Assembly: GCA_937900465.1 (NCBI GenBank)
Contig: CALCEJ010000155.1
Coordinates: 403 to 64,402, forward strand
Direction: 5' to 3'
DNA length: 64,000 nucleotides
From: an uncultured Bacteroidales bacterium
GTDB taxonomy: Bacteria; Bacteroidota; Bacteroidia; Bacteroidales; UBA932
Below, one piece after another: positions 4,697 to 62,728 of this stretch. Below the pieces are notes generated by a model. The model had not been told where the DNA came from and did no database searches. It saw nothing but the letters and a program-made list of their open reading frames with translations. Each line of letters starts with the position of its first letter. The first letter of the stretch is position 1. The position numbers and the translations under genes are program-made.

Positions 4697-5545
4697 ATGC
4701 ATACTGAAAGGATTACATCGGCATCGAATCCGAAGATAAAGAACCTGCTTCTTCTCCAGGAGAAATCCCGCGCACGCAAGGAGCAGGGTCTCTTTGTAGT
4801 CGAAGGCCGGCGCGAACTCTCCCACTGCATAGGTGCCGGCTTCCGTGTCCGTACCCTTTTCATCTGTCCGGAAATCGCCGGCAGGGAAAGGCTTTCTTCC
4901 GCGTCGCTTCGCGACCGTATCACGGCAAATGCTCCAGAAAGCCTTTCCCTGCCGGAAATCACGAGAGTAGTTGAATTAACAGAAGAGATCTACAGGAAAG
5001 TGGCGTACAGGGAGAGCACGGAGGGGATAATCGCGGAGGTTGAAGCCAAAGAGAATCACCTTGAGCAGCTGGAGCTGCCGGAGAATCCGCTTGTGGTCGT
5101 ACTTGAAGGAGTCGAGAAGCCAGGGAATCTAGGAGCGGTGCTGCGGAGCGCAGATGCCGCAAAGGCCGATGCCGTCATCGTCGCAGATCCGCTTACGGAC
5201 CTCTGGAACCCGAATCTTATCCGCGCAAGCATAGGAGCCGTGTTCACCGTCCCAACATTCGCCGTTTCTACCGTGGAGGCCATCGGCTGGCTGCAAAGCC
5301 ACGGATTCTCAATCCTTACGGCCCAGCTCCAGGACTCCCTCCCCTACTACGACACACCTATGACCGGCCCTACCGCCATCGTTATGGGCACGGAATCAAC
5401 AGGTCTCACTGACCCCTGGCGCCGCGCCGCCACGGCCCATATCCGCATCCCGATGCTGGGCCGTCTGGACAGCCTCAACGTTTCAGTCAGCGCGGCCATC
5501 CTCCTGTTCGAGGCCGTCCGTCAGAGGCGTAAAATCAAGGATTAG
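4697..5545 (+). CDS. TrmH/SpoU family RNA methyltransferase with an in-frame palindromic insertion
   Basis: EKPGNLGAVLRSA, GTESTGL, IPMLGRLDSLNVS SPOUT motifs. Confidence 0.93.
   Translation: MHTERITSASNPKIKNLLLLQEKSRARKEQGLFVVEGRRELSHCIGAGFRVRTLFICPEIAGRERLSSASLRDRITANAPESLSLPEITRVVELTEEIYRKVAYRESTEGIIAEVEAKENHLEQLELPENPLVVVLEGVEKPGNLGAVLRSADAAKADAVIVADPLTDLWNPNLIRASIGAVFTVPTFAVSTVEAIGWLQSHGFSILTAQLQDSLPYYDTPMTGPTAIVMGTESTGLTDPWRRAATAHIRIPMLGRLDSLNVSVSAAILLFEAVRQRRKIKD
4878..4955 (+). repeat. Coding palindromic element, copy 1 (20-bp perfect stem, 38-nt loop)
   Basis: CCGGCAGGGAAAGGCTTTCT 4878-4897 and its reverse complement 4936-4955; loop 34/38 identical to the cysS copy. Confidence 0.9.
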
Positions 5546-6051
5546 AACGGAAGGTCGTCAGTGGGGGCGTCCGTTCCGGCCGCGGGCTGGACGGGATTCT
5601 GATAAGGCGACTGGGAAGGCTGAGGCTGGACTCGCTGCTGCGGGGCAGCCTGAGGCTGGGCGGGTTGGGCCTGATAGGCGCCCTGTCCGTCCTGTCCTTC
5701 CTGACGACGGTCCAGAAGTTCAAGCGTATCTACTACAATCTCAGTAGTGTAGCGCTGGACTCCGTCCTGTCCGGTGTAGTTACGCGTACGCAGACGACCT
5801 TCAATGAAGAGTTTCGTTCCCTTATGGACATACTTTTCACAAACGTCTGCGTTTCCTCTCCAGGCGACAATGTTGTGCCACTCCGTATTCTCGTGCACCT
5901 CGCCGTTACGGTCGCGGTAGCGCTCCGAGGTAGCAAGCGGGAAGGACGCGACTTTTGCATTTGCCTGAGGGTTCTGGGGATTCGATTCGAGGTAACGTAC
6001 AGAAGGGTCTTTACCAACGTTACCGATTAGCATTACTTTATTGAGACTCAT
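5542..6051 (-). CDS. ssb: single-stranded DNA-binding protein
   Basis: MSLNKVMLIGNVGKDP, TEWHNIV, C-terminal DDLPF. Confidence 0.97.
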   Translation of the reverse strand: MSLNKVMLIGNVGKDPSVRYLESNPQNPQANAKVASFPLATSERYRDRNGEVHENTEWHNIVAWRGNADVCEKYVHKGTKLFIEGRLRTRNYTGQDGVQRYTTEIVVDTLELLDRRQEGQDGQGAYQAQPAQPQAAPQQRVQPQPSQSPYQNPVQPAAGTDAPTDDLPF

Positions 6052-6100
6052 AACGTTAAATATTTTTCCAAAGATACGGAAAAATAAAAAGACCCGCAAA

Positions 6101-7102
6101 CTATTTTTTTCTCAGCGACTCGTGGATATAGGCCTCGGTCCCAAGCAGGATCTGGGTAAGGACGTTCGTCTCGTGGGAGAGGGTTGCGAAGAGGATTCCA
6201 GTGGTCTCAAAGGGCAGTCCGTAGATTGAGGAGATTCCGCTCGCAACAAGCCAGTGGAATGCGCCGAACCCGCCGGGGACAGGGACGACCGAACTGATGG
6301 ACCCGATACAGGTAAGGAACAGGGCGTCAGCGGGTCCCAGCCCGTCGAGGGCCGGGATGGACTTCATCACGAAAAAGCTTGCCATCCAGTAGACGGTCCA
6401 AATCAGCGCCGTGTACAACAGGTACAGCCATCCGCTGCGGATATGGAATATGGATTTTACACCCTCGAAAGCCCTCGCGAGAAAGTTCCAGACCGCATTC
6501 CAGAACTTGCCCCGCGCCCGGAATTTCCAGCAAAGGAAAATGAACAGGACGGCGATGGCGACGGCGGCAGCGGCAATGATGGCAAGGGCGACACTGCCCT
6601 TCATCCTCGTGAAAACCGTCCTTTCAAGGAAGTCCCCGAACCTGTTCCACATCAATCCGAAAGTGATGATAATCAGCACTATCCCTGCCGCGGTGTCGCA
6701 CAGGCGGTCTGCAACCATGGACCCCAGGACCTTGTCAACCGGCGCGAGTTTCTTTCCTTCGCGGTCCAGGGCGGAATGCCTTGAGACGTAGGCGCAGCGG
6801 ATGAATTCCCCCGCGCGGGGGACCACCATATTCGAGACCATACAGATTGCGTATGCATTGTAGCAGGTGATGCGTTTTGTGGACGGGTCCAGCGTCAGAA
6901 GCTGCATCCTCCACCGGAGGCCCCTCAGAATCATTATGACGATCGCGCAACCCGCCGCCGGAAGCAGATACCACCATCGGCAGGTCCTGAGCCCATACAG
7001 GAACTCATTCCACTGTACTTCCCTGAAACAGAAATACAGCAGGAGCACCGCCACTGCCGCAAGGATCAGGCCCCGGAGGAAATCTTTTGCTTTCTTTTGC
7101 AT
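6101..7102 (-). CDS. lysylphosphatidylglycerol synthase TM-domain (UPF0104-like) membrane protein
   Basis: Multi-TM; RGLRW, PRAGEFIR, PVPGGFG motifs. Confidence 0.8.
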   Translation of the reverse strand: MQKKAKDFLRGLILAAVAVLLLYFCFREVQWNEFLYGLRTCRWWYLLPAAGCAIVIMILRGLRWRMQLLTLDPSTKRITCYNAYAICMVSNMVVPRAGEFIRCAYVSRHSALDREGKKLAPVDKVLGSMVADRLCDTAAGIVLIIITFGLMWNRFGDFLERTVFTRMKGSVALAIIAAAAVAIAVLFIFLCWKFRARGKFWNAVWNFLARAFEGVKSIFHIRSGWLYLLYTALIWTVYWMASFFVMKSIPALDGLGPADALFLTCIGSISSVVPVPGGFGAFHWLVASGISSIYGLPFETTGILFATLSHETNVLTQILLGTEAYIHESLRKK

Positions 7103-7174
7103 ACCGAAGGACAAAGATAGTGTAAAATCCCCAAAATTGGTTATATTTGTACTTCACAACAACCCCAACCAAAA

Positions 7175-8170
7175 GTGATGAAATCCATTCTTGCAATCGG
7201 CAACGCCCTGACTGACATCCTTGCTGTCCTTCCGGACGACACCCTCCTCAAAGAATATCATCTTCCCCGCGGCAGTATGCAGCACGTGGATATGGAAACG
7301 GGAGACAGGATTTGGGAGGCCCTCAAGCAGGTGGGCGTGAAGTATGTCCCCGGAGGATCCGCAGCAAACACCATTACCTGTACGTCCATCTTCGGAATGC
7401 CTTCCGGCTTTCTTGGAAAGATAGGTGACGATGACCTCGGAAACCTCTTCAAGAGCACAATGGAGCAGTATGGCGTCAAGGCGAATATGCTTTACAGCCA
7501 GAAATCTTCCGGGCGGTGTATGGTCTTCATCACCGGGGCCAATGCTGAACGGACTTTCGCGGATTATATGGGCGCGACCCTTGAGCTGGGGCCGGAAGAC
7601 CTGAAGCCGGAGTATTTCGAAGGCTACGACTATTTCCACATCGAGGGCTACCTCGTCCAGAATCAGGATCTTATCTCCCGTGCCGCCCAGCTCGCAAAGG
7701 CCGCCGGATGCATCATCTCGATCGATATGGCCTCCTACAACGTCGTAGAGTCCAACAATGCCTTTTTCCACAACCTCGTTGACAAGTACGTAGATATCGT
7801 CTTCGCGAATGAGACGGAGGCCCGCGCCTTCTCGAAGATGGAGCCCCGCGAAGCCCTCGATGACCTTGCGGCCCGCTGCGAGATCGCTGTCGTAAAGGTC
7901 GGAAAAGACGGGTCTATGGTCAAAAGCGGTAACGAATACCACTTCATCGAGTCCTGGCCCGCCACGCCCGTCGACGCGACTGGCGCCGGCGACACCTATG
8001 CCGCCGGCTTCCTTTATGCCCATTCGCTGGGGATGCCCCTTCGCGTCTGCGGCGAAGTCGGGTCCATCATTGCGGCGAAGGTCGTGGAAGTCATCGGCAC
8101 AAAAATCGACATCCCCCGCTGGAAGGACGCCAAGCAGGAAATACGTGAACTCATTGCCGCAAATTCCTGA
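7175..8170 (+). CDS. PfkB family carbohydrate/adenosine kinase
   Basis: GNALTD, GGSAAN, DATGAGD motifs. Confidence 0.92.
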   Translation: MMKSILAIGNALTDILAVLPDDTLLKEYHLPRGSMQHVDMETGDRIWEALKQVGVKYVPGGSAANTITCTSIFGMPSGFLGKIGDDDLGNLFKSTMEQYGVKANMLYSQKSSGRCMVFITGANAERTFADYMGATLELGPEDLKPEYFEGYDYFHIEGYLVQNQDLISRAAQLAKAAGCIISIDMASYNVVESNNAFFHNLVDKYVDIVFANETEARAFSKMEPREALDDLAARCEIAVVKVGKDGSMVKSGNEYHFIESWPATPVDATGAGDTYAAGFLYAHSLGMPLRVCGEVGSIIAAKVVEVIGTKIDIPRWKDAKQEIRELIAANS

Positions 8171-8697
8171 TGTTCAAGCCTTTAAAAGGATTATTCCGCC
8201 GCTACAGCCTCCGAAAGAACGCATCTTCCGAGCCAACGGGAATCCATCCCCTCGGGTCCATACGTAGCGTCGTTGCGCTTGTCGACGTGGAAGACACGAC
8301 TTTTGACGAGTGTAAGAATGCGCTCAATGCCTTTTTTCGGGAGCGTGGAATAAAGGGAGACATCTTCTTCTTCGATTTCCGCCGCCTTACGGAAGGTGAG
8401 CGTCTCATTACCAGTATCAAGACGACGGTCCTCAGGAAGGACCTCAACTGGTACGGCCGTCCCTCGGACGAGAAGGTCCAGCTTATGCTTCAGGGAGAGC
8501 CCGATATGCTCCTGTCGCTGATTCCTTCCGCCGGCTTCCCCGTAGAATATGTGGCGTCGTGCTCCAGGGCGCGTTTCAAGGTCGGGCGCGAACAGCTTCC
8601 GGGCGGGGTTTTCGACATTGTGGTCAGCGGCACTTCGGACGCCTCGCAGCTGGATGTATTCAACTGGATGGTAAAAATACTCGACACTATAGAATGA
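8170..8697 (+). CDS. conserved Bacteroidetes hypothetical protein
   Basis: Translationally coupled ORF; KDLNWYGRP and SRARFKVG motifs. Confidence 0.7.
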   Translation: MFKPLKGLFRRYSLRKNASSEPTGIHPLGSIRSVVALVDVEDTTFDECKNALNAFFRERGIKGDIFFFDFRRLTEGERLITSIKTTVLRKDLNWYGRPSDEKVQLMLQGEPDMLLSLIPSAGFPVEYVASCSRARFKVGREQLPGGVFDIVVSGTSDASQLDVFNWMVKILDTIE

Positions 8698-9176
8698 AGA
8701 CTCTCTGGCACTACATAATCGTATTCTTGATTTCGATGGTCCCCCTTATCGAACTCCGCGGCGCAATTCCTTATGCCGTGGGCTTCGGGCTTGACATCGT
8801 TCCGGCCATAATCATCTCCGTCCTTGGAAATATGATTCCGGTTCCTTTCATTTTCCTTTTCGCAAGAAAGGTTCTCCTGTGGGGAAAGGACAAGAAGATC
8901 ATAGGCGGCTTTTTCACCTGGTGCCTTGAAAAGGGCGAAAAAGGCGGAAGGAAGCTCGAGGCCAAGGCCGGCCGCGGCCTGTACTGGGCGCTGCTTCTGT
9001 TTGTGGGCATCCCTGTTCCGGGGACCGGCGCCTGGACCGGCACCCTCGCCGCCAGTATTCTCAATATGGACTTTAAAAAGAGTGTCCTGTTCGTTCTCCT
9101 AGGGGTCCTTCTAGCCGGTACGATTATGCTCGCCGCTTCCCTTGGCGTATTCGGAGCGATTCAGCTTGTGAAATAG
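8694..9176 (+). CDS. small multidrug export (COG2426-like) membrane protein
   Basis: PLIELRGAIP and FVGIPVPGTGAWTG motifs; ATGA overlap with the upstream gene. Confidence 0.85.
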   Translation: MKTLWHYIIVFLISMVPLIELRGAIPYAVGFGLDIVPAIIISVLGNMIPVPFIFLFARKVLLWGKDKKIIGGFFTWCLEKGEKGGRKLEAKAGRGLYWALLLFVGIPVPGTGAWTGTLAASILNMDFKKSVLFVLLGVLLAGTIMLAASLGVFGAIQLVK

Positions 9177-9232
9177 TTATTCCGCCCCCAGCACCAGCTC
9201 CACCGGACAATGGTCGGAGCCGAAGATTTCTC

Positions 9233-9787
9233 TTACAAACAAATAGTCAGACAAGCTTTTATCCCCGTCGACCATTGCGCCTCCCTATACAAGGATGCAA
9301 GACCGACTGAGATATTTGTATTCCGCCACAGGTTTACTCCCAAGCCTGGACAAACACAGGAATAAGTCCTCCAGTATGGTGGAGATTGCAATTCCCCTGT
9401 CTGGAAATACACTTCATCAGCATTAACCTTATAAAAATACTGCAAACCAAGCTGGCCTTCAACAAAGAGGAACAATCTGCGTCTTTCCGAAAAAAAGATA
9501 TATCCTTTACCATAAAGATGCATTGGAATAGAATGCCTGCTGGCAGGATAAGCATTCCACGTTTCGACCCCATAACCGGCCCCCAGGCCGGCAACGACAT
9601 CCTTGAAACGAACCCCCGTATTTAATGTATTAACGCTGTGAGGGATAAAAACCTGGGTTTGTGCAGATACCTCCAAAAACAAGTTCCTATCTTTATGATT
9701 ATCTTGAGAATAGGCTTCAATTTCGGATAATGATGCACATACGATTGCAAAGATTGCAAGGGCAGCGAATGACAATATCTTTTTCAT
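9233..9787 (-). CDS. hypothetical secreted, possibly outer-membrane beta-barrel protein (cassette cargo)
   Basis: Signal peptide MKKILSFAAL; alternating aromatic/Gly strands; low GC. Confidence 0.6.
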   Translation of the reverse strand: MKKILSFAALAIFAIVCASLSEIEAYSQDNHKDRNLFLEVSAQTQVFIPHSVNTLNTGVRFKDVVAGLGAGYGVETWNAYPASRHSIPMHLYGKGYIFFSERRRLFLFVEGQLGLQYFYKVNADEVYFQTGELQSPPYWRTYSCVCPGLGVNLWRNTNISVGLASLYREAQWSTGIKACLTICL

Positions 9788-9914
9788 ACCTAATGCTTTA
9801 TAAAACAACGACACGTAAATCTACTCATTATTTTTAAAACTCCAATAGTTTTAATTCCTGACGTTGTCCTATGCGCTGCCGCGGGAGCATAAGCATATGT
9901 GGTGCTTCAGTTAA

Positions 9915-9966
9915 TTTTAGACGGGTGCCCAAGTTTCTCATTTTTAACTTAGGCACCCGTCTAAAA
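9915..9966. repeat. Inverted repeat hairpin (terminator or MITE-like remnant)
   Basis: TTTTAGACGGGTGCCCAAGTT ... AACTTAGGCACCCGTCTAAAA, one mismatch. Confidence 0.65.
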
Positions 9967-9984
9967 CACTAGAAGACTATATTT

Positions 9985-10731
9985 CTATAGCACCAGCTCC
10001 ACCGGACAATGGTCGGAGCCGAAGATTTCGTTGTGGATTTCCGTCCGGGCGATCCGGGGACGGAGACGGTCTGAGACGATGAAATAGTCGATACGCCACC
10101 CCGCATTCCTTGCCCTCGCGTTCATCCGGTAACTCCACCAGGAGTACTTCACCTCATCCGGATGCTGATACCGCCAGGTGTCCGTGAAGCCTGCGGCGAG
10201 AAGCGCCGTGAACTTTTCCCGCTCCTCGTCGGAGAATCCCGCATTGAAGTGATTAGTCGCAGGGTTCTTAAGGTCAATCTCCTCGTGAGCGACGTTAAGG
10301 TCACCGCAGAAAACGACGGGTTTCACCCTGTCGAGGCCCATAAGGTAAGCCCTCATATCATCCTCCCACTGCATCCTGTATCCAAGCCGCCTCAGCTCAT
10401 CCTGAGAGTTCGGAACATAGGCGCAGACAAGGTAGAAGTCCTCCATCTCAAGGGTTATCGCACGTCCCTCGTGATCGTGGATATCTATTCCTATCCCATA
10501 ACGGACGGAAAGAGGATGATGCTTCGTATAGACCGCAGTCCCGCTGTATCCCTTTTTCTCCGCGAAGTTCCAGTAGCTTTCATAGCCTCGGAACTCGAGA
10601 TCCAGCTGTCCCTCCTGCATCTTCGTCTCCTGAAGGCAGAAAAAGTCAGCGTCAAACTCAGAAAAGACACCGGCAAAGCCCTTCCCCACGACAGCGCGGA
10701 GACCGTTTACATTCCACGAAATGAATTTCAT
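9985..10731 (-). CDS. xth: exodeoxyribonuclease III
   Basis: SWNVNGLRA, CLQETK, GDLNVAH, GWRIDYF, SDHCPV motifs. Confidence 0.96.
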   Translation of the reverse strand: MKFISWNVNGLRAVVGKGFAGVFSEFDADFFCLQETKMQEGQLDLEFRGYESYWNFAEKKGYSGTAVYTKHHPLSVRYGIGIDIHDHEGRAITLEMEDFYLVCAYVPNSQDELRRLGYRMQWEDDMRAYLMGLDRVKPVVFCGDLNVAHEEIDLKNPATNHFNAGFSDEEREKFTALLAAGFTDTWRYQHPDEVKYSWWSYRMNARARNAGWRIDYFIVSDRLRPRIARTEIHNEIFGSDHCPVELVL

Positions 10732-10732
10732 A

Positions 10733-12244
10733 TTATTCCAGGTTCCAGGTACTTCCTTCCTTGGTGTCCTTCACAGTGATTCCCACTGAGGCAAGAAGGT
10801 CACGGATACGGTCGCTCTCCGCCCAGTTCTTTTCCTCACGGACCTTCCTGCGGTTTTCAAGGACAATCTGCATCGCCCCGTCAAGGGCTTTCTGATACTT
10901 GTCGCTTCCTCCTGCCGCATCCTCGTCACTGAGCCCCAGCACTCCCCCGACGATTTCGTCGAACAGCTGTTTGAACGAGGCCTTGTCAGCCTCCGACAGG
11001 TTTCCTGCATTAATGAGTTTCACCGCTTCAAAAAGATGGGCTATCGCAACGGGGGTATTCATATCATCGCACAGCGCATCCATCACGGCCTCGTAAATGC
11101 GTCCGGCCTCGCCGGAAGGGGAGACCCCTTCCGGAGCATTTGCCCGGATAGGGTCACGAAGCGACGCGGAGGAAGGGGTCTCCCCTTCCGGCGAAACGGC
11201 GCGCCAGGCGTCCATCATACGCTTGTACCCCTTCTCCGCAGCGGCGAGAGCTTCATTGGAGAAGTCAAGGGTGCTGCGGTAATGGGCCTGAAGGATGAAG
11301 AAACGGATGGTCATCGGGGAATAAGCGCGCTCGAGCTTGGGATGATTTCCGGAGAAGAGTTCCGGAAGGGTGATGAAGTTCCCGAGGGACTTCCCCATCT
11401 TCTGGCCGTTTATGGTGATCATATTGTTGTGGACCCAGTAGTGAACGCCCTGGGTTCCGCGGGAAGCCTGGTTCTGGGCTATTTCGCACTCGTGATGAGG
11501 GAACATCAGGTCCATTCCGCCGCCGTGGATGTCAAATTCCCGGCCAAGATATTTCTCGCCCATCACTGAGCACTCCAAATGCCATCCCGGGAAGCCTTCG
11601 CCCCAGGGAGAAGGCCAGCGCATAATGTGCTCCGGCTCCGCTTTTTTCCAAAGTGCGAAGTCATAGGGAGCCTTCTTGTCAGACTGACCGTCAAGAGAGC
11701 GGGTCCCTTCAAGCGTCGCCTCAAGGGTGCGTCCGGAAAGGACTCCGTAATGGAAGTCATCGTTGTATTTTTCGACGTCGAAATAGACGGACCCGTTACT
11801 CTCGTAGGCATAACCGGCTTCGAGTATCTTTTTGATAGCCTCGATCTGCTCGATGATATGGCCGGAGGCACGGGGCTCTATGGACGGAGACTCGCATCCC
11901 AGAAGGCGCATAGCCTCGTGATAGCGTTCAGTGTAGTACTGAACGACCTCCATAGGCTCGAGCTGCTCCAGACGGGCTTTCTTCGCGATCTTGTCCTCGC
12001 CTTCGTCCGCATCGTGCTCGAGATGGCCCACATCCGTGATGTTGCGCACATAACGGACCTTGTACCCCAAATACTTCAGGAGGCGGAAAAGGACGTCATA
12101 AGTAACGCCCGGACGGGCGTGTCCCAGATGAGCGTCACCATAGACCGTGGGGCCGCAGACGTACATTCCGACGTGGCCGGGATTCACCGGGACAAACAGT
12201 TCCTTGCTCCTTGAGAGCGTATTTGTAAGATACAAGGGTCTCAT
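10733..12244 (-). CDS. cysS: cysteine--tRNA ligase with an in-frame palindromic insertion
   Basis: [27 protein letters not shown] motifs. Confidence 0.98.
11109..11194 (-). repeat. Coding palindromic element, copy 2 (24-bp perfect stem, 38-nt loop)
   Basis: TCGCCGGAAGGGGAGACCCCTTCC 11109-11132 and its reverse complement 11171-11194. Confidence 0.9.
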
Positions 12245-15809: not shown

Positions 15810-15914
15810 GGGTGCACAAGGTCTGATTTTGGGTGCCGGACCTTGTGCGGTTTTTGTCTCCTATGGCCGATTTATGCACAAGGTCCCCTGGATGAAATCA
15901 GACCTTGTGCACCC
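15810..15914. repeat. REP/MITE-like nested palindrome, copy 1
   Basis: GGGTGCACAAGGTCTGATTT / AAATCAGACCTTGTGCACCC outer IR with internal GACCTTGTGC and GCACAAGGTC. Confidence 0.8.
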
Positions 15915-16060: not shown

Positions 16061-16296
16061 AAGGTGCCTCGGGCGGACATAAAATCTTTGGTGGCTGTTG
16101 GTGGCTGTTGTGTATTCATTGGTGACTAATCAAAACTCTTAGGTTCAGGGAGTTATCTTCTTGGTGGGTGTATTCAAATAATTCCCCAAAAATTGTGTCC
16201 AAATGTGGCCAATTTCTGGGGTTGTGGTCAAATGTGTCCAAGCTGAAAGGAGTGTCATTTCTTTGTCCTCTCCAATAATTTTTCTTAACTTTGTCA

Positions 16297-20759: not shown

Positions 20760-21070
20760 CAATAAAAACAGATAGCTTCTGTTCTGAGGGTGCATTTGGA
20801 AGATGTGTCCAAATTGTGTCCAAAACTGGTGGATGCAAAAAGAAAAGACTTTGTAAGTTTCTGTAAAACAGTCACTTGCAAAGTCTTTCCTGTGCCTCGG
20901 ATGAGGGCAAAATACTTGGTGGCTGTGGGTGGATTTTGTGTATTCATTGGTGGATGCCCAAGGTCTTGACCTTTAAAAACTTGGTATTATTGCAACTGTA
21001 TCCAAAATAACCCCCAGAAATTGTGGTCAAATGTGTCCAACTTCTGGGGGTTGTGGTCAAATGTGGCCGA

Positions 21071-33858: not shown

Positions 33859-34056
33859 AATGCCAATAAGCCTTGCGGTTCTCGATTATTACGGCTATCT
33901 TCGTTCTACTTGCTTAAATACCCTGAACTTCTTTCTCAGGGACAGATTCCGGAATCAAGGGAGCTCCACTGCATCTGTTGCAAGGGAGCTCCAATCTTGA
34001 AGACCCCCTTGAAAAATGTGTCCAAAATGTGTCCAAATTTGGGGGATGCTAAAAAA

Positions 34057-34101
34057 TCAGACTTTGCAAGTCTTTATAAATCAACAACTTGCAAAGTCTG
34101 A
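34057..34101. repeat. 15-bp inverted repeat next to the att core (homolog at 20844-20888)
   Basis: TCAGACTTTGCAAGT / ACTTGCAAAGTCTGA. Confidence 0.8.
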
Positions 34102-34105
34102 CAAG

Positions 34106-34190
34106 TGCCCCGGGCGGGACTCGAACCCGCACGGCCGTTTCGGGCCAAGGGATTTTAAGTCCCTCGTGTCTACCATTCCACCACCAAGGC
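34106..34190 (-). tRNA. tRNA-Leu(TAA)
   Basis: GCCTTGGTGGTGGAATGGTAGACAC..AGGGA-CTTAAAA-TCCCT, long variable arm, GGTTCGAGTCC. Confidence 0.96.
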
Positions 34191-58993: not shown

Positions 58994-59027
58994 ACTTATG
59001 ATTGCTTTTTCTATACCTTTCGCATCT

Positions 59028-59104
59028 TCTGCCTCTGCCTCTGCCTCTGCCTCTGCCTCTGCCTCCGTCTCTGCCTCCGTCTCCGTCCCCGTCTCTGCCT
59101 CCGC
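59028..59104. repeat. (TCTGCC)n hexamer microsatellite
   Basis: Direct reading of the sequence. Confidence 0.85.
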
Positions 59105-59175: not shown

Positions 59176-59272
59176 GCACAAGGTCTGATTTCACGCCCGA
59201 CACCTTGTGCGCTTTTTGTCCCCAGATACCCTTTTCCGCACAAGGTCCCCCGCCTATAATCAGACCTTGTGC
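59176..59272. repeat. REP/MITE-like nested palindrome, copy 2
   Basis: GCACAAGGTCTGATT / AATCAGACCTTGTGC; same 97-bp span as 15814-15910. Confidence 0.8.
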
Positions 59273-62416: not shown

Positions 62417-62728
62417 GCGGAGGGTGCGCCGGCGGTTTACGGAGGGTGCGCCGGCGGGTTGGGCCTTGCGGAATGTCAACGGGCAGTTCTGCGTGCGGCG
62501 AGTGAGAGATTTGCGGAAGGTCTGATCAAAGGTGACAGACCTTCCGCGGGGGAAAGGCCGTGGAGGTGTGTCTGGCCGATGGTGTTTGCGGAAGGTGTGC
62601 GGGATTTGAGCAGACCTTCCGCAAACGCATGCAGACCTTCCGCGGCGATGGAGGGTGACTCTCTGCGTGGTGGAACTCTTCGCGGCGATGGAGGGTGACT
62701 CTCTGCGTGGTGGAACTCTTCGCGGCGA
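62414..62728. repeat. Intergenic repeat cluster (GCGGAAGGT/ACCTTCCGC palindromes, 40-bp tandem duplication)
   Basis: 62641-62680 equals 62681-62720; CGGAGGGTGCGCCGGCGG x2. Confidence 0.8.

Follow-up and report, generated by a model that had tools for sequence, protein, structure and literature searches.

The DNA analysed here, called the window, is a 64,000-nucleotide stretch from an uncultured Bacteroidales bacterium (contig CALCEJ010000155.1). Two of its housekeeping genes each contain, in frame, a copy of the same palindromic element. The first host encodes a TrmH/SpoU-family methyltransferase, which scores below the curated NCBIfam cut-offs. The second is cysS, whose product scores above the cut-off of TIGR00435. 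Each copy is a perfect stem enclosing a 38-nt loop. The two loops are identical at 34 of 38 positions (4 differences), and both copies lie in the sense orientation of their host and are translated as SSASLRD[RP]I[TR]ANAPE (Table 1). The stems of 20 and 24 bp, the loops and the shared reading frame had been reported in a preliminary description of the window, and all are seen again here. Perfect 20-bp stems did not occur in 30 triplet shuffles of the window (0 found), against 7 overlapping 20-mer stem matches in the real sequence. A search tolerating up to 15 mismatches, and another by a covariance model with its filters off, revealed no third copy in the window. An Rfam search of the window returned just a tRNA at the gathering threshold, and nothing better than E 0.17 for the trmH element.

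Table 1. Features of the two hairpins and their host genes (window positions)
Feature	Position	Strand	Details
TrmH/SpoU-family RNA 2'-O-methyltransferase gene	4697..5545	+	282 aa, intact frame; host of copy 1
First CCGGAAATC	4868..4876	+	within conserved host motif FxCPEIAG; second occurrence (4952-4960) shares 4 nt with the end of the arm
Hairpin copy 1	4878..4955	+	TrmH-family gene, ~codons 61-87; 20-bp arms, 38-nt loop
Copy 1 left arm	4878..4897	+	site-specific sequence; stem pairing
Copy 1 loop	4898..4935	+	CGTATCACG variant; inner hairpins 4903-4915 and 4916-4924
Copy 1 right arm	4936..4955	+	stem pairing
cysS, cysteine-tRNA ligase gene	10733..12244	-	503 aa, intact frame; host of copy 2
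Hairpin copy 2	11109..11194	-	cysS, ~codons 351-379; 24-bp arms (11109-11132/11171-11194), 38-nt loop
Copy 2 loop	11133..11170	-	CCTATCCGG variant; the P0241 allele has the copy-1 variant here, flipped

Both proteins are longer than short orthologues at the element. Between flanking anchors, TrmH of the window spans 52 residues compared with 31–35 in the shortest orthologues (40 of 80 loci lack the anchors and are uncounted), and its alignment to PDB 4X3L has 18 gap columns at the element. CysS spans 64 residues compared with 45–48 in seven close orthologues, and here too the element falls at alignment gaps (17 columns) relative to the solved CysRS 6UJD. Relative to short orthologues, the net lengthening comes to about 17–21 aa. 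An insertion of ~28 aa had been predicted; the insertion is present, at the smaller size given by anchor lengths and gap columns. More distant members of the genus carry an unrelated, non-palindromic loop of similar length at the cysS site, which was therefore already variable. In an AlphaFold2 model of TrmH, residues 64–86 lie between a helix and a strand and have a predicted local distance difference test score below 50, so the element is modelled as a disordered surface loop. This is the kind of position that had been expected, for CysS as judged by the 6UJD gaps alone.

The element belongs to a multicopy family. Exact matching against genome contigs located it at 90 loci, 89 of them in assemblies titled as Bacteroidales/Bacteroidia and one on a 1.7-kb contig binned as Bacilli. 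By title, the assemblies come mostly from ruminant gut samples, and one is Candidatus Cryptobacteroides. All five genomes in which copies were counted hold 8–19. Across the genus, 32 of 401 genomes match within 3 mismatches, with 1–19 copies each, and in a sample of the family the covariance model matches 5 of 151 genomes, the centre genome included. After deduplication, 162 copies remained from 41 genome labels and 64 sites. At least 48 of the 64 sites lie within Pfam-supported frames. With gene names taken from a reading of the Pfam domains, the hosts include MetG, a second class I synthetase, PolA, DnaG, DnaX, LigA, UvrA, AtpB, AtpG, FabD, Fmt, TruA, TruB, MiaA, MraW, MurB and LpxK. Two patterns gave 0 matches in viral contigs, and blastn gave none in plasmids and phages. 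A peptide search for further hosts, itself weak, returned the query alone.

The hairpin is read almost always in one way. One register (register 0) is used at 45 of the 48 Pfam-supported sites, 28 in sense and 17 in antisense (binomial p 2e-18), yet each of the six frames is stop-free at 49–58 of the 64 sites. The near-single register, given that other frames are stop-free, suggests that protein-level selection filters insertions. In both orientations the register 0 peptide has the lowest net charge and the lowest content of Cys and bulky residues. The hairpin is likely translated as a neutral flexible loop of the protein. Both orientations recur among close homologues. Of the best 120 TrmH matches, 13 have the loop in sense, 47 in antisense and 55 have other repeat-like peptides, while 22 of the best 120 CysS matches have it in sense and 24 in antisense; these classes were set by regular expression, and the ranking favours inserts. 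The proposal of a multicopy hairpin family inserted in frame in Bacteroidales, resembling the palindromic elements of Rickettsia, thus holds.

The element is 78–86 bp long, and its stems average 21 bp. The loop comprises two inner hairpins and an A-rich strand. Stem covariation, proposed from the two window copies, is strong: in 57 sequences chosen from the first scan, with relatedness uncontrolled, both partners vary in 22 of 22 stem pairs, and none of 500 shuffles attains the score. The first inner hairpin also covaries across the wider family (GTCGC/GCGAC, GTTGC/GCAAC and GTGGC/GCCAC). Arm columns are variable, their outer positions are near background identity, and outside the stem the copies share no invariant tetranucleotide. 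Of 144 copies, just 16 contain the GGGGWSAS motif known from TIRtron repeats. In sister lineages the family appears to be intergenic, often with a 39-nt loop, and copies of one genome have uniform arms (0.79 among 11 in G461 and 0.82 among 6 in G212). Loops of 26 nt with the same ends exist too. Longer intergenic variants in G399 (L460, L464 and L467) have ~20 nt more in the first inner hairpin and keep the second hairpin and the A-rich strand.

Empty sites show what arrives with the element. One empty allele, with flanks 91% identical, has no arm and no palindrome and is net 66 bp shorter; an intergenic empty site is 86–89 bp shorter. Because empty alleles have no palindrome, the arms arrive with the element. 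An origin of the arms from a palindrome already present in the target is ruled out at the two informative empty sites. One cysS allele does hold a 20-bp palindrome, which we read as a deletion remnant. In the window, CCGGAAATC occurs exactly twice, at 4868 and 4952, and these repeats (PEI...PEI) had been likened to a target duplication. The repeat is real; the duplication is not. The longest flanking direct repeats of the family match shuffled controls, the trmH copy alone among 144 tested has a 9-nt flanking direct repeat, the first occurrence of CCGGAAATC belongs to a conserved host motif, and the empty allele shows replacement rather than duplication.

Two causes had been offered for the covariation, selection on structure and arm-to-arm conversion. 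G-T wobbles number 35 on the mRNA strand and 38 on the template strand, and this lack of an mRNA-strand bias gives no support to selection on RNA structure. Toward the antisense strand of the element there is a weak bias (47 versus 26). Arm-to-arm conversion is the likely cause.

Arms and loops were compared in 144 of the 162 copies; the remaining 18 were set aside because they have under 15 of the 20 stem pairs. Arm identity is 0.656 between copies at the same site, 0.515 within the same genome and 0.499 in the background. Loops behave the opposite way, showing 0.68 mismatches between copies of one genome, compared with 1.76 between copies at one site and 2.33 in the background. Copy by copy, the arms are nearer to the site in 88 of 106 cases and nearer to the genome in 16 (2 ties), and the loops are nearer to the genome in 74 and nearer to the site in 19 (13 ties). 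Among informative pairs, the loop is nearer to the genome consensus in 214, nearer to the orthologue in 45 and tied in 9. The loop is also found in both orientations at 23 of 33 multi-copy sites, including 12 flipped pairs whose arms are at least 90% identical. Arms follow the site while loops follow the genome, and this, together with the probable overwriting within a species, is what is new here. Loop inversion, genome-wide homogenisation of the loop and whole-element swaps between strains had all escaped the preliminary description.

Genome-specific loops and flips could be short-read assembly artefacts, produced by collapsed repeats and by loops mis-oriented between perfect arms. All titled genomes examined are metagenome assemblies, contigs break at loops, and arms of 20–24 bp are near the smallest assembly word sizes. 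The whole element, however, is shorter than a read. Several variants coexist within single assemblies (8 in G005, 3 in G295 and 2 in the window), and separate assemblies share private variants (G351 with G375; G295 with G303 and G210). The trmH allele of the window also recurs in sequencing runs X4 and X6, from other studies. We therefore regard an artefact as highly improbable.

The loop could instead be a selected functional DNA or RNA site bound by a host protein, with flipping by an invertase as a programmed intragenic phase variation that recodes the hosts. The covarying inner hairpins would fit such a site. Both orientations are open and both occur within one species, and recoding intragenic invertons have been reported in Bacteroides (PMC10028968). 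The arms, where an invertase would be expected to bind, are however unconserved. Sites are freely empty or filled by unrelated hairpins, the hosts have no common function, and the wobbles show no preference for the mRNA strand. Nor can selection by itself bring one new variant to fixation at 17 of the 20 copies of a genome. This explanation seems to us very doubtful.

Alleles from the species of the window show the changes at close range. One CysS protein (P0243) matches the window. Another (P0241) has, outside the loop, a single difference from it and retains the residues of arms and flanks. Its loop reads GAFAVIRSRSDA, the reverse of the trmH-type loop, which is not what a plain flip of the cysS loop of the window would give. 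A third (P0244) has the trmH-type loop in sense, a foreign left flank and 24 extra residues inside the loop of the element; perhaps a second element was inserted into the first. The trmH-type loop variant is absent from the 401 genus genomes. Runs X2, X3 and X8, which contain this species, carry it at other loci between different arms, and in X3 its depth there equals that of the species.

At the trmH locus, contigs of runs X2, X3, X7 and X8 depart from the window sequence around the element. In X3 and X8 the start of an unrelated hairpin of the P0002/P0003 type lies there. X3 is otherwise a ~99% identical strain, with 41 differences in 4253 bases downstream. The swapped tract extends ~30–40 nt past the hairpin into host codons, which suggests that this event was an allele exchange. 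The same trmH loop or comparable sites are also home to several further families of long-stemmed hairpins (P0002, P0003, L261, L268, L305, L306, L323, L417 and L162), and the clade appears to host many such families. Repeats that we take to be of the CGTC type lie in the same trmH and cysS loops of relatives. Since near-identical strains have the loop flipped or exchanged, or the hairpin replaced, overwriting of the loop in place by other copies is likely.

The same alleles can be read without conversion in place. Whole copies might have inserted repeatedly at a few tolerant loops, or alleles might have been exchanged between strains or species, and loops would then resemble the genome because the copies are recent. 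The trmH swap does look like a recombined patch, reaching as it does into host codons. P0244 has a foreign left flank, and many unrelated hairpins occupy the same loops. Fresh copies, however, should bring arms typical of the genome, and within-genome arm identity is 0.515 against a background of 0.499. In P0241 the loop has changed while the arm and flank residues stay, and allele exchange covers the trmH swap alone. We consider this alternative unlikely.

Taken together, the element is a multicopy repeat of ~80–86 bp, carried in frame by dozens of housekeeping genes within one clade of Bacteroidales. It is likely non-autonomous and likely forms a neutral translated loop. Its 38-nt loop is likely overwritten in place by copies from the same genome, and the arms stay with the site. 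We hold this reading with good, though not high, confidence, and several observations weigh against it. The loop signal is weak among pairs whose arms are at least 80% identical (28 follow the genome and 18 the site, with 2 ties), and the loops of 19 of 106 copies follow the site. Overall loop conservation is inflated, because loops were found by similarity searches. P0241 and P0244 are known as protein sequences alone. Finally, the searches turned up no mobiliser: 38 of 40 genomes have RAYT-like genes whether or not they carry the element, and these genes are flanked by their own, different repeats. The element model matched 1 of 55 and 1 of 19 scanned loci, both degenerate and both in intergenic lineages.

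A linked RAYT or IS200-like nuclease had been suggested, and the search did not bear this out. By tblastn the window has no RAYT-like gene. The co-distribution of RAYT-like genes with the element is not specific. The surveyed genomes (1.1–3.2 Mb) have up to 12 divergent RAYT-like genes of ~300 aa each. Many of these score below or near the Pfam Y1_Tnp cut-off, and several have flanking repeat arrays of their own. At three loci of intergenic lineages (L374, L415 and L378) the element follows a RAYT-like gene within ~450 bp; it flanks the gene on the downstream side alone and is degenerate in two cases, and these RAYTs have other flanking repeats. This proximity is a lead, not a link. At a further locus (L032) the trmH copy adjoins a RAYT. 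DUF559 nucleases were found in 0 of 5 genomes. GIY-YIG domains occur in one long open frame per genome, which is presumably UvrC, and in a single short gene of G002, away from any element. In G399 a pair of element copies flanks a 260-aa gene in a REPtron-like arrangement; by eye we take the gene to resemble a TatD-type hydrolase.

A possible course of events has five steps. An intergenic hairpin family would have landed whole in permissive protein loops, arms included and without target duplication (step 1). The copies that persist are nearly all in the register whose peptide is neutral and rich in Ser, Ala, Pro, Glu and Gly in both orientations, probably through selection on the protein (step 2). 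Polymerase template switching between the arms may then keep them paired during drift and flip the loop, which recodes ~13 residues (step 3). Template switching at inverted repeats homogenises arms and inverts spacers (PMC8604942). It needs no selection on structure, with which the unbiased wobbles (35 versus 38) accord. Because it has no means of bringing in a loop variant from a different locus, we infer that copy-to-copy conversion is also needed. Such conversion would sweep one loop variant through a genome (step 4); nicking or breakage of the folded hairpin is its probable trigger. Among enzymes the leading candidate, a putative one, is a RAYT-like HUH protein that would act in trans. At orthologous sites, REPINs reportedly differ according to the RAYT of the genome and may be overwritten in place (bioRxiv 2024.10.14.618302, a preliminary report). 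Unrelated hairpin families also take over the same loops (step 5). As a more speculative and rather doubtful version, an HUH/RAYT-like enzyme in trans might recognise the Y-shaped single-stranded loop and swap loop cassettes between stems throughout the genome. This would continually rewrite 13 residues in essential proteins such as CysS, MetG, PolA and DnaG by an inside-out, short-homology replacement in place.

The closest parallel is the Rickettsia palindromic elements (RPEs), small multicopy palindromes of ~105–150 bp found in frame in unrelated housekeeping genes (Ogata 2000, 2002, as described in PMC10969869). The Bacteroidales element is likewise a multicopy palindrome in frame in such genes, with a shared peptide at a tolerated position. 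It differs in its length of 78–86 bp, compared with about 105–150 bp. Its arms vary by site, its loop is shared and its variants are swept per genome. What its copies have in common is just the loop peptide of 13 residues, in two alternative forms through inversion, whereas RPEs have one conserved peptide. The hosts also differ, gut Bacteroidales as opposed to intracellular alphaproteobacteria; the comparison is drawn with published RPE descriptions. Since length and the single peptide both disagree, we do not file the element as an RPE.

REPINs, which are built from repetitive extragenic palindromic (REP) sequences, resemble the element in hairpin size, in the intergenic location seen in sister lineages and in copies at orthologous sites that change with the genome (PMC3337134, bioRxiv 2024.10.14.618302, PMC8266576). 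RAYT-like genes are also common in genomes of the element-bearing clade. REPINs, however, have conserved REP arms and a variable spacer, and the present element, with its conserved loop and variable arms, is inside-out. It has no fixed GTAG or CGTC tag at its foot and is mostly coding in this clade, unlike the mainly extragenic REPINs, and a cognate RAYT is putative only. Unlike miniature inverted-repeat transposable elements, it has neither conserved terminal inverted repeats nor a target-site duplication. Arm conservation, the tetranucleotide, location and target duplication thus keep it out of both groups. By analogy, the element works like an RPE with turnover that resembles REPIN overwriting, and we file it with neither.

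Intragenic GTAG/CGTC REPs offer another comparison. Their units or dimers lengthen proteins by 20–30 residues without shifting the frame, and tRNA synthetases, pseudouridine synthases and repair genes are frequent hosts (Di Nocera 2013; PMC3733652). The element makes similar palindromic additions in such genes, but the stems of these REPs are 5–13 bp and their loops 2–20 nt, compared with stems of 20–24 bp and a branched 38-nt loop here. The supplements of that report list intragenic REPs and may bear on the novelty of the family; they lay outside our literature search. That search, with most subscription papers outside its scope, gave no description of this family or of coding palindromes in Bacteroidales.

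Template switching and invertons share with the element arm homogenisation and inversion of a spacer that recodes part of a protein (PMC8604942, PMC10028968). The spacer is 38 nt here and 2–5 bp in the yeast coding cases (PMC8604942). It also belongs to a repeat family and is exchanged between loci. As in invertons, a segment between inverted repeats occurs in both orientations and recodes the protein (23 of 33 sites; P0241 versus P0121). The arms have no conserved invertase site, as judged without a search aimed at invertases.

The window holds other repeats. An identical 41-bp direct repeat (9190–9230 and 9989–10029) duplicates the 3' end of an exodeoxyribonuclease III gene and brackets an AT-rich islet of ~800 bp, which contains a 193-aa open reading frame (9233–9814, minus strand) and a 15-bp hairpin (9915–9966). 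The islet resembles a small integrated cassette, and its interior differs among related strains. A 105-nt direct repeat (20796–20900 and 34009–34113, 13.2 kb apart) ends at a tRNA-Leu gene (34105–34190); with a 61-nt repeat at 16064 and 20892, it probably marks one or two integrated elements. REPIN-like doublets with 15–20-bp stems lie at 15810–15914, 59176–59272 and 62510–62625 and are similar by eye to repeats adjoining RAYT-like genes in relatives (L154). An exact 40-nt tandem duplication (62641–62720) adjoins one REPIN-like hairpin, and a 6/12-nt microsatellite (59016–59099) adjoins another.

The uniformity of REP- and RPE-type repeats throughout a genome is a long-standing open question, for which gene conversion was reportedly proposed in 1988. 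The present family separates two processes, the arms serving as a barcode of the site and the loop as a barcode of the genome. Near-identical strains hold the intermediate states, and rates of flipping, conversion and replacement are therefore directly measurable. The family also maps ~48 naturally insertion-tolerant positions in conserved proteins. For studies of gut Bacteroidales it carries a warning, as hosts of the element give false signals of multi-residue adaptive change. Essential enzymes in this clade carry a loop that is repeatedly rewritten.

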